Shown here in pieces: positions 3,470 through 64,000 of a DNA stretch of 64,000 bases (within the stretch, counting starts at the first letter, position 1; each line of letters starts with the position of its first letter). The translations under genes were made by a program, and so were the position numbers. The notes under the pieces were generated by a model. It saw only the letters and a list, made by a program, of their open reading frames with translations. It was not told the DNA's origin and searched no databases. Source of the DNA: Anolis carolinensis (taxonomy: Eukaryota); the NCBI RefSeq assembly GCF_035594765.1, contig NC_085841.1:302817402-302881401 (forward strand). Direction: 5' to 3'.

Positions 3470-4645
3470 TGTCACAGACAGAACGCCACCAAATAAAGTT
3501 CAACACAGTTTATTAAAGTTACAGAACTAAAAAAAATGCCCGTAAGAAACAAAGGACTAGGCAAACACTTGCCTTCAATGTGAAAAGATACAAAAAGACT
3601 CCGCTAGTTTTAAAAACGGTTCAAAAGATAAACCGGATTAAACAGGAGTTTAATCCGGGTTAAATCAAAAATGCTTACTTCAGCCTGGCAATTTAAACAA
3701 ACAAAAGTTGATAAACAGGGATTCAATATAACACAAATAACTGGCAGCAGATTCCTCTCTGCTACTCAAAAGCTACGATTGAGTAACTAAGTTGTTACTC
3801 CTCCGTGCAACGAGCGAAATCCGGGTCCAGGCACATCAATCAGGGTAGCAACGGTCAGCAGGGTCCCAATCCGGTCCAAGGTCGAAAGCCAGGTACAGAC
3901 GTCTTTAGTTCACAAGTTCCACCGATAGCCACAGAAGGGATAGTCCGAGGTCGTAGTCAGTCAGTCAGTCCAGCGTCAATCCAGAGTAGGCAATTAATGT
4001 CCGCCAAAAAGACGACGGAGGTCCAAGCTATCAAGATTAAACACAAGTTGCACAGAAAAACCCCACACAGTTCCTCCCGCCGTCTATGCCCAGTGTCCTT
4101 AGTAACTTACGTATTCAGCAACGAATCACACCCGTCTTCAGGAAGTTCCCCAACAAGAGCCCAAGCGTTCATCCAGATTACCTTGCCCAACGCAATTAGC
4201 CATTGATTCTAGACCCCATTTTATGCCAGTTCATAACTCATCGCTGTCAGCTGCTATCCTAATTCCAGGTGCCTCCTCATCATCATCCTCATCAGAGCTA
4301 AAACACCTTTGACTACGCCCCACAGCATCCCCAGCTGTGGATCCCGTTCCATCCCTCCAGCCCGTCCACGGGTCCGATCCTGCAACCCGCCAGTCGCCTC
4401 CCATGCTATCATTGCCGGTGACACCCAAATCCTCCCTCACACGAGTCCATTCCATGTCATCCTCCTCTGAGCTAACCATCTCTTCCTCCATTCCCTCGGT
4501 AAAACCCTCAAAGGAGTCTTCGTCTGTTGGTTCTGCAAATAAGTCCCGGAGCCGTTTCCTTTCGCGCTCCTCAAGAGAGTCTGACTCTCGAGGAGTCTTA
4601 CGACCTCGTCTCCTAGTATCGGAGCCAGAAGGCTCAACCATAACA
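3470..4645 (-). mobile_element. solo LTR, family A (Gypsy-like), 1176 bp
   Basis: TGT...ACA termini, perfect 5-bp TSD CCAAG (3465-3469 / 4646-4650), minus-strand AATAAA at 3514-3509, TATA-like CATAAAA near 4220. Confidence 0.92.
4231..4641 (-). CDS. U3-encoded ORF of LTR A, 136 aa basic/acidic peptide (MVEPSGSDTRRRGRK...DLFAEPTDEDSFEGF...)
   Basis: ATG at LTR base 5, uninterrupted to a stop just upstream of the TATA-like box; N-terminal part homologous to the ORFs of the LTRs at 18429 and 26793. Confidence 0.6.
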   Translation of the reverse strand: MVEPSGSDTRRRGRKTPRESDSLEERERKRLRDLFAEPTDEDSFEGFTEGMEEEMVSSEEDDMEWTRVREDLGVTGNDSMGGDWRVAGSDPWTGWRDGTGSTAGDAVGRSQRCFSSDEDDDEEAPGIRIAADSDEL

Positions 4646-18428: not shown

Positions 18429-19701
18429 TGTCAAGAGTCAGACGCCAGTTAACAAACAAAACAGAGTTTATTCACAAGATAAGCCAAAAGTAACATAAAC
18501 ACAGAAGGTGTCCTTGAAACACTTCACTTATCAGTGTTTCAAGAGTAGTTCGAACAAAAATATAACTCAAAAACAAGCCAAGCTATTTTTCCACGCTGGC
18601 ATTCAATAAAAACTAAAAGACGCTTCAATTCAGCTTTGGAGAACAAATTGAGTTAACTGCTAGAAAATAAGCAAAATAAACGAAGACTTGAAACCTTCCA
18701 GAAGCTGCAGAGTATAACTGAAAGTGCAAAAGCCTCTTTTGGCTCCAAACCGTTTCTGAAAACAGCCAGCCGGCTCTGCGGATTTAAAGGGACAGTTCCC
18801 AAAAGAAAAACAGCAAACTGATTTGAAAACAAAACAAACTAGAAGTGCAGTAAACTGCTTCCATGGTGCAGATAAAGCCGAGAGCTTCAAAGGGATGATG
18901 AATAGCCGTCGTCAGGAGAATCCAAGGTCAGGTCAGGAGGCAGCAGCAAATTCCAAAAGGCAAACCAGTAGTCAGAAGCCGGGAGTAGTCGTCAGTCAGA
19001 GGGCGAAGACAGAAGCCAGGTCAAATTCCAATCCAGAGTCCGAAGAGGGTGCAGTCATCCAAACCAGGTCCACAATAAGACACAGAGAGCCAAGTAACGA
19101 TGGTATCAGCAGATCCGAATCACAGTCCAAGTCCAGTCTTCACGGAAACACAGAGATCGCAATGGCGCCTCAGCAACACCTTGCCACACGCAAAGTGCAG
19201 TGGCCAAACATTCCCATTTTATTCCCCTTTCTCCTGGGTGACCAAACACTCACGCCCTAACACCAGGTGTCCCAAATCTACTCAGAGTCCGAACTCCACA
19301 CAGCTAGAGCTCGTGGATCCGGAGTACCTAGCAATTCGTCGGAGTTCCAATCATCCTGCCCACACTTAGCCCCATGAACACTTAAAGAACCATCCTCCCT
19401 TCTCCAAGCATCCCAAGTGGGATCAGCTCCTGCAGAAACCCCAGGTTCAGTAGTATCCATAGGCCCCAAATCCTCAGACATCTCCGGTGGCTGTGCCCAT
19501 TCAGTGCCCACTTCCCCAGCCACCACCTCAGCATCAATTTCCCCAAACTCCCCATCTGAATCTTCCTCAGTAGATCCCCCATATAGCTCTCTAAATCGCT
19601 TCCTGCGCAACTCCTCCAGTGAACCCTCATCATGAGGGTTTTTTCTTCCTCTTCGAATCCCATCACCATCAACCATAATCCCCAAAGGCGCAGTCACAAC
19701 A
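18429..19701 (-). mobile_element. solo LTR, family B copy 1
   Basis: TGT...ACA termini, same ends as 26793-27956, minus-strand AATAAA near 18470; TSD imperfect (aatat vs gaata). Confidence 0.88.
19278..19700 (-). CDS. U3-encoded ORF of LTR B1 (VVTAPLGIMVDGDGIRRGRKNPHDEGSLEELRRKRFRELYGGSTEEDS...)
   Basis: open from LTR base 2 for 141 codons including stop; first ATG at 19676; conserved with B2. Confidence 0.6.
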   Translation of the reverse strand, partial: VVTAPLGIMVDGDGIRRGRKNPHDEGSLEELRRKRFRELYGGSTEEDSDGEFGEIDAEVVAGEVGTEWAQPPEMSEDLGPMDTTEPGVSAGADPTWDAWRREDGSLSVHGAKCGQDDWNSDELLGTPDPRALAVWSSDSE

Positions 19702-26792: not shown

Positions 26793-27956
26793 TGTCAAGA
26801 GTCAGACGCCAATTAGCGAACAAAAATAGAGTTTATTCAGCAGATAAGCCAAAAAGTAATGCTAACACAGAAAAAACCTTGAAACACTTCACTATCAGTG
26901 CTTCAAGAGCAGTTCAAACAAAAATATAATTCAGCAACACAAGCAGGAAAAAACAAAGCTAAACAAACTTAGTGCAAACTGCACTTTCTGAGTCCAAGCC
27001 CTGCCAGCCGGCTCTGTAGTTTTCAAAGGAACAGTTCCCAAAAGAAAACACCAAATTGGTCAGGAAACAAACAAACAAACTAAGAATGCAGTAGACTGCT
27101 TCCACAATGTGGATAAAGCCGAAGGCTCCAAAAGGATGGTGAAAAGACGTCGTCCGGGATTCCAAGGTCAGGTCAGGAGATAACAGAGCAAGCCAAAGGA
27201 GTCAAAAGCCCAAAGAGCAAGCCAGGAGTCAAAAGCCGATAGTAGTCATCAATCACAGGGCGAAGGCAGTAGCAAGGTCAAATTCCGATCCAAGGTCTGA
27301 AGAAGGTGCAGTCATCAAAAACAGGTCCACGATAAGACACAGCGAGAGCCAAGCTAGGTGATAACAGCAGATTCAAATCATAGTCCAAGTCCAGTCTTCA
27401 AGGAAACACAGAGATCCCAATGGCGCCTCAGCAACACCTTGCCACACGCAAAGTGCAGTGGCCAAACATTCCCATTTTATTCCCCTTCCTCCTGGGTGAC
27501 CAAACACTCACACCCAAACACCAGGTGTCCCAAATCTACTCAGAGTCTGAGCTCCACACAGCTAGAGCTCGTGGATCTGGAGTACCTAGCAATTCGTCGG
27601 AGTCCCAATCATCCTGCCCACACTTAGCCCCATGAACACTTAAAGAACCATCCTCCCTTCTCCAAGCATCCCAATTGGGATCAGCTCCTGCAGAAACCCC
27701 AGGTTCAGAAGTATCCATAGACCCCAAATCCCCAGACATCTCCGGTGGCTGTGCCCATTCAGTGCCCGCTTCCCCAGCCACCACCTCTTCCTCAGCATCC
27801 ATCTCCCCATCTGAATCTTCCTCAGAAGATCCCCCATATAGCTCTCTAAGTCGCTTCCTGCGCAACTCCTCCAGTGAACCCTCATCACGAGGGTTTTTTC
27901 TTCCTCTTCGAATTCCATCCCCATCAACCATAATCCCCGAAGGCGCAGTCACAACA
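26793..27956 (-). mobile_element. solo LTR, family B copy 2
   Basis: TGT...ACA termini, perfect 5-bp TSD CATAA. Confidence 0.93.
27536..27955 (-). CDS. U3-encoded ORF of LTR B2
   Basis: open from LTR base 2 for 140 codons including stop; net 3-bp length difference from B1. Confidence 0.6.
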   Translation of the reverse strand, partial: VVTAPSGIMVDGDGIRRGRKNPRDEGSLEELRRKRLRELYGGSSEEDSDGEMDAEEEVVAGEAGTEWAQPPEMSGDLGSMDTSEPGVSAGADPNWDAWRREDGSLSVHGAKCGQDDWDSDELLGTPDPRALAVWSSDSE

Positions 27957-56196: not shown

Positions 56197-56307
56197 CATT
56201 GCTTATTTCAGGCAAGTCAAATTTGGTGAAATCCCACCACTGAAGCCGGTAGGTGGTGTTGGCAATATTACTGGCCACAGCAGACTGTCCATCTCCGATC
56301 ACAGCCC
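56197..56307 (-). CDS. AMBRA1: AMBRA1 coding exon ([36 protein letters not shown])
   Basis: ttttttcttctcag acceptor, gtaag donor, 111 bp, phase 1/1. Confidence 0.96.
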
Positions 56308-56476
56308 CTGAGAAGAAAAAAAGAAAGAAAACATTACTATCTTACTCTCTGAAATTCAAAGACACAGATAAATGATGAAATATTTCCTGATTCCCCAGCA
56401 AAATGAAAGACTTAAGACAGAGGATGCATAAAAGTTAAGGAAAAAGGCAGGCACAACTAAAAATGTTGTCAAATAT

Positions 56477-57348
56477 TATGACGTCCCTGGCTGCGAGAGC
56501 ACTGGAAACCAATACACCGAGGCCAATAAACAATCTAATATCTTTATTAAGGAATTAAGAAATTAAAACGAAAACAAGCAGAAGGTATAGTTCATCAATA
56601 GACCTTCCAGGAAAGGTCAAATATAGTCCAGTAATATATTGTCCAATATATAATATTAGAGTTTAAAGTTTGTAATCCAAAAAACCGAAACGCACTCAAA
56701 CTTCCAAGCAGTTTGAGTGGGGAAATGTCCAAGTCTTTTTTCTAAAGTTCAAAGCAAGTCCAAGACAAGGAATTGGAAACAAGGCTGGATACACGGCACG
56801 ACAAGGCAAGGCTGGATTCATGGCAAGACAAGACAAGGAACACAGCCAGGTAAGGCACAGCAAGGCTGGAAGGTAGTGGACTTAAACGCAGTCCACACTT
56901 GGCTGGAAGTGAAGTTAATCCACCAAACTGGCACGTTGACTCCGCGCTGGCTAGCCAGCGCACAGAACTTTTAAGAACTTTGAATCTTTTCTCGGAACAG
57001 GTGTCTCAACTGCTAGAACAACATCTTGACCAGACGCAATCCTCCCTTAGAATTCTCAGGGGAAAATAGGTTAATCAGCAGATTCCCTTGCTGCTAATCG
57101 CGCGCTTCGTCTCCTGCCAGCTTTCTCCTGTCTTTCAGTTTCCACAAACATCCTTCGATCAAAGGGAGGAGAACTGGGAAGAGAAGACTCCGTTTCAAGG
57201 CCCTTTTTAATGAGCACTGAACTAGAATTGTCAATAGGGAACATCTGGAATGGGGCAGTTTTGCTGAATTGGCAAAAAACCTGTTTCCTCATCACTGTTG
57301 TCCACAATGGAGTCAGGTACACAGCCCAAGGGTCCATGGGACATCACA
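56477..57348 (-). mobile_element. solo LTR, family D, 872 bp
   Basis: 11-bp imperfect inverted termini tatgacgtccc/gggacatcaca, 5-bp TSD AATAT, minus-strand AATAAA at 56548-56543. Confidence 0.88.
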
Positions 57349-57636
57349 AATATTAATGTCAGTTAAAGACAGGATAAGAGAAGTGAACAATAATAAATCA
57401 ACAGGACTACTACACACCAGCATTCACGCTGGAATTCTGACAAAATTGGGTAACTAACTAACCATTATAATACAAAATTCTGAAATTTAACATTTTGGAT
57501 TGTGTGGGATAAGCAGCCAAGAGGTGAAACAAGACTGTGCCAATCATCCCCACTCCTGCATATACTGACAAGCCCTTACCTACTCCTTTCTGCAGGCATC
57601 TGAATCAAAGGTACTGGATCACCAGAAGGAGGGGGT

Positions 57637-61330: not shown

Positions 61331-64000
61331 CTATGTGTCCATTTTGTCCAAAGTCCCCATGTATTTTTTCAGCAAGCTGCGATGGAATACTGGGTGTATT
61401 TTCCCTAAACTTTTTGGCAATGCCAACTGGAAAGTTACTTCATTGATAACACCCTGTATTCTGAATGGTCCAATATATTTGGGGCCCAATTTTCTCGAAG
61501 GTAGCCCCAATTTGATGTTTTGGGTACTTAACCACACTAGATCTCCTTTATCCAGTTTATCGCCTTCCACCCTCTTTCTGTCTGCGAACGCTTTATACTT
61601 TTTGTGTGCTTCCTTTAAGGATGCAGTCACTTGACTCCAGCATTCTAGCATTTGCGTTTTCCATTTCCCTGCCTCTGTTTCCTCATTCTCTGTCCATCTT
61701 GGCAACTGGGGCAAAGGCTGTATTTCATACCCGTAAACCACTTCAAAGGGGGTTTTATTTGTTGCTGAATGTATAGTCGAATTAAAAGCTAGTTCTGCAA
61801 AAGCCAACCACCTAGACCAGTCATTTTGTCTCATGTTAGAGTACATTCGAAGGAACTGCCCAAGTGTCTGCTGAGTACGTTCTACTGCCCCGTTTGTCAT
61901 GGGGTGAAAAGCAGAACTTAGACTCCTTTCTGCTCCTAGCATTTCCAAGAATTTTTCCCAAAATTTTGCTGTGAATTGTACTCCTCTGTCACTGACCACT
62001 CTACTGGGACATCCATGCAGTTTGTAAATGTGGTTTATGTACAATTCAGCTAGTTTCTCGGCTGATGGTAGTTTCGTCAGTGCTATAAAGTGGGCCTGTT
62101 TAGAAAACAGGTCTAATACTGTCCAAATATAACGATGTCCTTTGCTAACCGGTAGTTCCCCCACAAAGTCCATAGCTACACATTCCCAAGGTCTGGTAGG
62201 TTCTGCTACTGTTTGTAGTAATCCCATTGGCTTCCCTCCTCTCGATTTATTTCTGGCACAATCATCACATTGAACAACATGATTCTTTATGTCCTTCCTC
62301 ATCCCTGGCCACCAGCAATGTTTTGCTATTGCCTTTGTTGTTTTTGTAATTCCTGTATGACCAGCGCTCTGGTTATTGTGAAAACGATGCAAAATCTTAA
62401 TCCTTAATGTTGCTGGGATATACAGTTTCTTGTTCACAAACCAAAATCCCCCCTTCTGCTCCCCCTTTTCTGCGTTGGATGCGATCCACTGATCTCCATC
62501 ATAAGACTGTTTCAGTTCGTTTCCCCAATTATCTTCCCCGTCGAGTTCAACAATAGCAGTGTTCTCCTTTTGGGTTTGCGCTCTTGTCCTGACAGCTAAG
62601 CCCCATTGTTTATCAGAGAATATTGTTCCCTCTTTTGCTGTGGTTATGCCTCCGTGTTGAGGCATGCGTGAAAGAGCATCTGCCAAGACATTCTGCTTCC
62701 CTTGAAAAAACTTTAATTGGAAATCGAACCTGCTGAAGTATTGCGCCCATCTAATTTGTTTGGGGGACAATTTTCGAGGAGACTTTAAATACTGGAGGTT
62801 CTTATGGTCAGACCAAATTTCAAATGGGATTCCGCTTCCTTCGAGGAAGTGTCGCCAGCATTCTAAGGCTTTTAATATGGCTAATGCCTCTTTTTCCCAT
62901 ATTGGCCAACATTTTTCAGTTTCGCTGAACTTCCGGGACAAATATCCGCAGGGTTTTAAGTTCCCATTTTGATCTTTTTGCAATAGTACTGCCCCGTACG
63001 CGCAGTCTGAGGCATCGCAATGGATTATGAAAGGGCTCCTGATATCGGGGTGTTTTAGGATGGGTCCTTCTGTGAAGCATTCTTTTAGGGTTTCAAATGC
63101 CTTTTGGCATTCTGGCGTCCAACCCAGTTTGGCGCCAGGAGCTTTTACTTTTGCTGTCTCCCCTTTCCCTTTTGTTTTTAAAAGTTCAGTAAGGGGTGCG
63201 GTTATTTGCGCGAAGCCTTTTATGAAGGATCTATAAAAATTTGCAAACCCCAGAAATGATTGCAATTGCCTCCTTGTTTGAGGCACTCCCCATTCTTTCA
63301 CATCTGATACTTTAGCTGGATCCATAGCTAACCCTTCTGGAGATATCCGATACCCCAGAAAGTCAATTTGAGTTTTATTGAATTCACATTTGGACAGTTT
63401 TGCGTACAGCTTTGCTTCTCTTAGTCTCTGCAAAACTTCCCGGACCAATTTTACGTGCTTTTCCTTATCTTCGCTCACAATCAAGATATCATCAAGAAAT
63501 ATGAATACCCCTCTGTACAACAATGGGTGTAGTATTTCATTTATAAGCTGCATAAAGCAACCGCCTCCATTTTTTAATCCGAAAGGTAAAATTTTATATT
63601 CAAAATGGCCGAATGCGCAGGAAAATGCAGTTTTCCAAGTATCCTCCGGTTTAATTCTTAATTTATGATATGCTTCAATTAAATCCAGTTTGGTAAATAT
63701 GCTCCCTTTCTTCAATACGGTAATTAAATCCTTTACTAAGGGCATAGGGTATTTATTGTCCTTAGTAATTGCATTTAAATTTCGATAATCAATGCACAAT
63801 CTTAGGGAGTTGTCTTTCTTTCTCCTAAATAACACTGGGGCCCCGAGAGGAGAATTGGATGGCTTAATGAAGCCTCGCGCCAGGTTTTTATCAATATATT
63901 TCCTCAATTCCTCCTTCTCCTGCACAGACATGGGATACACTTTTGGTTTTGGTAAGTTTGCTCCTGGGGTTATTTCAATTTCTACTTCTATATTCCTTTT
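61331..64000 (-). CDS. pol: Ty3/Gypsy Pol (RT, RNase H, integrase), 5'-partial, intact frame
   Basis: RLCIDYRNLN, LPFGL, FLDD; RNase H DASD/EKEALA/SDHKNL/ADALSR; integrase HHCC, MDF/SDRG/AVER, GPKYIGPF; open to the window edge. Confidence 0.97.
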   Translation of the reverse strand, partial: KRNIEVEIEITPGANLPKPKVYPMSVQEKEELRKYIDKNLARGFIKPSNSPLGAPVLFRRKKDNSLRLCIDYRNLNAITKDNKYPMPLVKDLITVLKKGSIFTKLDLIEAYHKLRIKPEDTWKTAFSCAFGHFEYKILPFGLKNGGGCFMQLINEILHPLLYRGVFIFLDDILIVSEDKEKHVKLVREVLQRLREAKLYAKLSKCEFNKTQIDFLGYRISPEGLAMDPAKVSDVKEWGVPQTRRQLQSFLGFANFYRSFIKGFAQITAPLTELLKTKGKGETAKVKAPGAKLGWTPECQKAFETLKECFTEGPILKHPDIRSPFIIHCDASDCAYGAVLLQKDQNGNLKPCGYLSRKFSETEKCWPIWEKEALAILKALECWRHFLEGSGIPFEIWSDHKNLQYLKSPRKLSPKQIRWAQYFSRFDFQLKFFQGKQNVLADALSRMPQHGGITTAKEGTIFSDKQWGLAVRTRAQTQKENTAIVELDGEDNWGNELKQSYDGDQWIASNAEKGEQKGGFWFVNKKLYIPATLRIKILHRFHNNQSAGHTGITKTTKAIAKHCWWPGMRKDIKNHVVQCDDCARNKSRGGKPMGLLQTVAEPTRPWECVAMDFVGELPVSKGHRYIWTVLDLFSKQAHFIALTKLPSAEKLAELYINHIYKLHGCPSRVVSDRGVQFTAKFWEKFLEMLGAERSLSSAFHPMTNGAVERTQQTLGQFLRMYSNMRQNDWSRWLAFAELAFNSTIHSATNKTPFEVVYGYEIQPLPQLPRWTENEETEAGKWKTQMLECWSQVTASLKEAHKKYKAFADRKRVEGDKLDKGDLVWLSTQNIKLGLPSRKLGPKYIGPFRIQGVINEVTFQLALPKSLGKIHPVFHRSLLKKYMGTLDKMDT

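Follow-up and report, generated by a model that had tools for sequence, protein, structure and literature searches.

The analysed window comprises 64,000 nucleotides of the Anolis carolinensis genome (contig NC_085841.1). At positions 56477-57348 its minus strand carries a solo long terminal repeat (LTR) of 872 nt with TG...TA ends and short inverted termini, which belongs to a family of chromodomain Ty3/gypsy elements, referred to here as family D. One copy of the target-site duplication lies on the 5' side of the LTR (57349-57353, ATATT on the minus strand), and the second ATATT copy on the 3' side (56472-56476). Contigs from three of four public sequencing runs cross the LTR-flank junction on the 5' side, and the insertion is therefore not peculiar to this assembly. 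An AATAAA at 56543-56548 (-) is the likely polyadenylation signal of the LTR, and its position would place the reading frame described below within the transcript of the element.

The LTR resides within an intron of AMBRA1, on the same strand as the gene and just upstream of an exon at 56197-56307 (-), which matches the human chain with E 4e-12. The AATAAA of the LTR lies approximately 240 bases ahead of the splice acceptor of this exon, and premature polyadenylation of AMBRA1 from this signal is possible.

Both peptides named in the preliminary description of this DNA were found on the minus strand at the positions given there, at the 5' end of the LTR. The first (VMSHGPLG...DVPY*; 57347-57234 plus stop, i.e. 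57231-57347) forms an acidic spacer with an early stop. The second (SSPPFDRR...RRSARLAARESAD*; 57175-57074, stop codon at 57073-57071) contains an SPPF.R element and a basic end, within which RRSARLA was confirmed at 57112-57092; the complete HMGN-like motif, RRSARLAA, occupies 57089-57112 and is the most conserved part of the frame. In the window copy the family frame is lost at about 57260-57255; no contig from the four sequencing runs bridges this break. Since it lacks pol and is frameshifted, the window copy most likely makes nothing and is silent debris.

A genome search with the LTR gave 41 matches (40 of 3758 candidates were scored), and the 30 best LTR copies, including the window copy and the two LTRs of one element, were fetched. 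Full-length copies across the genome are 87-94% identical. An open frame of at least 91 codons was present in 24 of the 30 copies, while the remaining six had a broken frame, with breaks that were either peculiar to the copy or located at a common unstable spot. The frameshift of the window copy, for which a check across the family had been proposed, is thus specific to this copy. RRSARL is constant only in part: 19 of the 24 open copies carry RRSxRL, but the motif is altered in the other five, and its fourth position varies.

Duplications of 5 bp with at most one mismatch border 28 of the 30 copies, the other two being the LTRs of the single element. The window copy ends in TA; the family as a whole displays the TG...CA ends and the short duplication of Ty3/gypsy elements. 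The two-LTR copy of family D is a 6.6-kb element, in which Pfam detected gag (with a zinc knuckle), protease, reverse transcriptase, integrase, SH3 and chromodomain. It is itself broken elsewhere, its LTRs are 94% identical, and there is no env-sized frame between its integrase and 3' LTR. RNase H was annotated by Pfam in a relative (P0008), and the order is gag followed by PR-RT-RH-IN, without env. The chromodomain (PF00385) is situated at the C-terminal end of the integrase, both in the two-LTR copy (E 4e-10) and in P0008 (E 1e-8), and, as judged by eye, its three aromatic cage positions are occupied by F, W and Y/F. Family D is therefore a chromovirus-type Ty3/gypsy element.

The relation of the LTR frame to pol was analysed at loci chosen by similarity of the integrase end and not by the tail. 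We read 70 of 150 listed places, of which 64 had a scorable junction (six without an anchor or junction were dropped); in 50 of these no stop interrupts the frame between the chromodomain and the LTR. Overall, the LTR frame is in frame with pol at 56 of 79 unique 3' junctions. In most full-length relatives the fused frame passes, with no intervening stop, from the SH3 domain and the chromodomain across the polypurine tract and on into the 3' LTR, and two UniRef clusters of Anolis Pol proteins (1211 and 1212 aa, with 94 and 366 members) already contain the tail. It is encoded in the first 280 bases of the LTR and has a length of 83-97 residues in the anole. The ATG of this frame belongs to the end sequence of the LTR itself. 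It is missing from one subfamily, with LTRs beginning TGTAGTG, in which the frame is nevertheless maintained (24 open copies carry GTG). Stand-alone genes encoded in LTRs, of the type of MMTV sag and HIV nef, do exist. However, the fused junctions of both surveys, the presence of the tail in the UniRef Pol clusters and the frame kept by the ATG-less subfamily argue that the separate U3 peptide of the preliminary description is most probably the C-terminal tail of Pol, i.e. of the integrase, located behind the chromodomain.

Two pairs of identical 3' junctions (L037/L038 and L109/L110), each approximately 5.4 kb apart, suggest tandem elements with a common LTR, or a local duplication.

Family D itself requires separate consideration. 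Only three of its 3' junctions occur in this assembly and none is in frame with pol, in contrast to the wider family, in which the tail does not appear as a separate frame with its own start codon. With the same pattern search, none of eight junctions of D-like copies was in frame, compared with six of seven in the sister group, and in several D-like copies pol ends at a TGA overlapping the ATG (TGATG). The tail could have become a separate small protein in family D and its closest relatives, translated by stop-restart at this overlap, and the selection that persists inside family D (pN/pS 0.35) would agree with this. We nevertheless consider it improbable. Seven of the eight D-like junctions carry G runs of 7-10, and the off-frame state tracks the length of the G run in the purine-rich linker in all groups: 16 of 27 junctions with G runs of at least 7 are out of frame, compared with 7 of 52 with shorter runs (Fisher p = 5e-5). 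Slippage or errors of assembly would produce such a pattern, and in family D slippage at the G run is the likely cause. Furthermore, in the tree the D-like copies form a grade between in-frame groups and not a clade (three rows have long branches and an unsure place), two ATG-less copies are likewise off frame, and the D copy with two LTRs has breaks at other places as well.

Selection was analysed on 118 unique natural open tails, which fell into 26 groups, 16 of them with at least two copies; natural medoid copies were used as representatives, and three singleton tails, whose frame shifted late or whose ends were aberrant, were left out. On the remaining 23 tails, all picked for being open, a codon model gave a maximum likelihood omega of 0.33, and omega = 1 was rejected (2dlnL = 181). 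The pairwise omega of the tail among the 16 subfamily representatives was 0.35 (bootstrap 0.26-0.45), whereas the other sense frames gave 1.00 and 1.05, and the antisense frames 0.99, 0.55 and 1.29. Within single groups, pN/pS was 0.44 in the ATG-less subfamily, beside the value for family D quoted above. For ten copies containing both parts, omega was 0.19 in the SH3-chromodomain region and 0.32 in the tail. The nine motif codons gave an omega of about 0.10, which is approximate since dS of the motif is near saturation, and the rest of the tail gave about 0.37; this part is also constrained, and the motif is therefore not the only job of the tail. The tail is thus under purifying selection at the protein level across 16 subfamilies, most strongly at the motif, and the joined frame of about 90 codons, proposed from the window copy, is real and selected.

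U3 regions contain promoter and enhancer elements, and the LTR DNA past the tail stop also has an apparent omega below 1 (0.64-0.79 by the same simple pairwise method). Both points would favour a frame that is open by accident, or conserved for promoter elements at the DNA level. The codon data largely refute this, and we assign it only a very small probability: five codons are used at each invariant arginine, the omega of the tail is far from that of the two other sense frames, and the tail is fused to pol. In addition, gaps are biased towards multiples of three in the tail (164 of 305, compared with 167 of 713 after the stop, in pairs that are not independent).

The motif has the form R-R-S-x-R-[LI], with three conserved arginines. 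R1, S3 and R5 are fixed in all 16 subfamily representatives, position 2 is R in 14 and K in two, and position 6 is L or I in all 16; conservation within the tail is indeed highest at the RRSxR core, to which the preliminary description had drawn attention. Position 4 varies, RRSARL being common, and several anole subfamilies read RRSARIAA. In the 110 of 115 open tails with a residue at R5, this was R in 101; each of the other nine can be reached from a CGN codon by one transition, as is typical when a copy decays once inserted. At position 7, where HMGN has S, 107 of 110 tails have A, and the tail thus departs from the invariant RRSARLSA core of the HMGN family. When the window was resampled 100 times by dinucleotides, exact RRSARL never appeared, whereas the looser R[RK]SxR[LI] appeared in 38 of the resamplings (about 0.5 chance occurrences per 64-kb window). 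A motif in a single copy is consequently weak evidence, and the real signal is its conservation across subfamilies.

We also considered whether the tail could be a captured host HMGN gene. This was rejected, as only the core matches: the host HMGN exon, found at one of three host loci compared, continues KPAPPKPEPKPKK. The proline/lysine continuation of HMGN was not found in the tail, and Pfam HMG14_17 (PF01101) gave no match in tail-bearing sequences at E up to 1.

Several proteins carry comparable motifs. In cryo-EM, the RRSAR of HMGN2 and the RRSSRL of Dsup are seen bound to the acidic patch, anchored by their last arginine (PMC12487698). Yeast Dot5 (RRSARIAT) depends on its three arginines (PMC13347269), and binding is also described for a loop of APC3 that shares five of the seven HMGN residues (PMC11910654). 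The anole tail resembles them in having an RRSxR[LI] core within a segment that is probably disordered, and in some anole subfamilies the agreement with Dot5 extends to seven residues (RRSARIA). The likeness ends at the core, and the tail belongs to a retrotransposon enzyme with only putative binding. Arginine anchors on the acidic patch are also used by the CBS of foamy virus Gag, KSHV LANA and HCMV IE1, and the foamy virus anchor steers integration sites, as a review relates (PMC9040877). These cases resemble the tail in that an arginine anchor is proposed to tether a mobile genome to the patch; they differ in that their motifs are not HMGN-like and reside on Gag or episome proteins, whereas the anole motif lies on the integrase of an env-less element.

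Outside the anole, 112 Pol proteins with a chromodomain, mostly of carp and catfish kin, were compared; they come from the best 120 of 131 matches. The fish and frog proteins, which we take to be vertebrate Sushi-like chromoviruses, have the same domain order and a very similar chromodomain, followed by a GG(G/D)SV linker and a short tail; judged from the linker, this tail too probably lies within the LTR. An RGRP segment follows the chromodomain in 104 of the 112 proteins and at none of the 64 anole junctions, whereas R[RK]SxR[LI]A was found in none of the 112. The anole tail, by comparison, has 83-97 residues. Forty-nine of the 112 proteins (within P0010-P0122) end in an SPEY/F-like word, 15-25 residues past the GGSV linker, which is possibly another LTR-encoded motif of fish chromoviruses.

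A different assignment of the motif is that the tail does belong to the integrase, with a motif that is a basic signal for nuclear import, DNA binding or kinase control and not a ligand of the acidic patch. The body of the tail is acidic (net -4 to -10), and its last 26 residues carry a net charge of +1 to +4, as a basic signal would. The RGRP segment of the relatives, mostly fish, presumably resembles an AT-hook and suggests a DNA-binding role behind the chromodomain. Ty1 integrase reportedly has a C-terminal nuclear localisation signal, and since RRxS and RxS are common kinase sites, the motif also fits a nuclear-localisation or a basophilic-kinase site. However, import signals usually take or prefer lysine, while R1, S3 and R5 are fixed in the 16 subfamilies and lysine is admitted only at position 2, which is the pattern of HMGN, Dsup and Dot5. 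For this reason we regard a role in import, DNA binding or kinase control as unlikely, although less so than either of the alternatives discussed above.

Structural predictions and profile searches gave little. A complex of lizard H2A and H2B with the last 35 residues of the tail scored 0.02 (predicted with no alignment, and with peptides outside the calibration); AlphaFold 3 likewise fails for HMGN2, according to the cryo-EM paper (PMC12487698). A single-sequence fold of the chromodomain with the tail had a mean pLDDT of 43. The tail profile met only noise at E 1.5 among solved structures, and a homologue's tail had no usable match in the ESM Atlas. Among 1.84 billion representatives of annotated proteins the profile found two matches, apparently gene models that had swallowed this LTR. 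No annotated protein of 49-160 aa matched the tail, and among longer annotated proteins there was one anole model. No clear peak of nucleosome-like 10-bp periodicity was seen around 43 insertion sites, an underpowered sample.

The predicted anole PDZD9 model XP_008122630 starts with about 57 residues of the tail, and represents either an exonised LTR or a gene-model artefact.

The reading that we favour, and hold to be reasonably probable, is that the stretch in the window is a frameshifted relic of a selected integrase tail of about 90 residues of an anole chromovirus, whose terminal RRSxR[LI] likely anchors the integration complex on the H2A-H2B acidic patch. Binding of the patch is suggested by the identity of the tail motif with the motifs of published binders. 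Pol would be read through into the 3' LTR, and the mature integrase would retain the tail, and thus possess a chromodomain, an acidic leash and an arginine anchor. The acidic spacer would serve as the flexible leash; the arginines at positions 1 and 2 would act as variant arginines and that at position 5 as the anchor, as in HMGN2 and Dsup. The anchor would dock on H2A-H2B and keep the integration complex attached to nucleosomes, in the manner of foamy virus Gag, and chromodomain and anchor together may provide a two-point capture of the nucleosome or retention on chromatin.

The closest precedent is group A of the plant CRM elements, whose coding region continues into the 3' LTR, where it specifies the CR motif, a putative targeting motif of the integrase (PMC3059260, PMC3605345); the same sources describe beet Reina elements with a frame reaching past the chromodomain into the LTR. 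An LTR-encoded integrase tail is common to CRM group A and the anole element. In the former the CR motif, located downstream of the polypurine tract, replaces the chromodomain, an arrangement not found in the anole element, which keeps the chromodomain upstream of the polypurine tract. Moreover, the anole LTR, in a vertebrate host, adds an acidic spacer and an HMGN-like motif, whereas the plant LTR encodes the CR motif. The layout as such is known from plants. In searches of open-access literature we found no retrotransposon integrase with an HMGN-like motif and no report of this tail, and the word 'retrotransposon' is absent from the acidic-patch review PMC9040877.

The window contains further LTRs. 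A young solo LTR at 4234-4645 (-) belongs to a family with at least 150 matches at 96-100% identity. In full-length copies of this family a U3 frame is likewise fused to pol (1182 aa in L198), Pfam detected no chromodomain, and the tail carries RRRGRK and EDSFEGF (an FxGF word), the latter presumably resembling ligands of LEDGF/TFIIS-N-domains. The suggestion of a second, different solution in the same U3 slot is borne out to the extent that a chromodomain-less family has a different, pol-fused tail there. Two related LTR-like copies, at about 18700-19700 (-) and 26950-27950 (-), have a similar open U3 frame (RRGRK...LEELRRKR...) without the FEGF word, and a third family, at 61331-64000 (-), has an open Gypsy pol frame (RT, RH, IN, SH3) and no chromodomain.

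It is quite possible, and we propose it tentatively, that the start of anole gypsy LTRs is a swappable chromatin-targeting cassette for the integrase. The chromodomain lineage would carry a convergent HMGN-type anchor in place of RGRP, and the chromodomain-less lineage an FxGF tail like the ligands of LEDGF/TFIIS domains. If so, the anole element would provide the first case of an HMGN-type nucleosome anchor carried by a retrotransposon integrase itself, and thousands of solo LTRs would scatter a coding piece through the genome. Open frames at the starts of solo LTRs in the anole genome should be treated with caution, as pol tails and not as new genes. Little is known of how vertebrate LTR retrotransposons choose or capture chromatin beyond the chromodomain, and the motif offers a short, strongly selected candidate. 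Should it bind, mimicry at the acidic patch would extend from herpesviruses and foamy virus Gag to the integrases of retrotransposons, and the layout of the plant CRM elements, an LTR-encoded targeting module, would have arisen again in a reptile.
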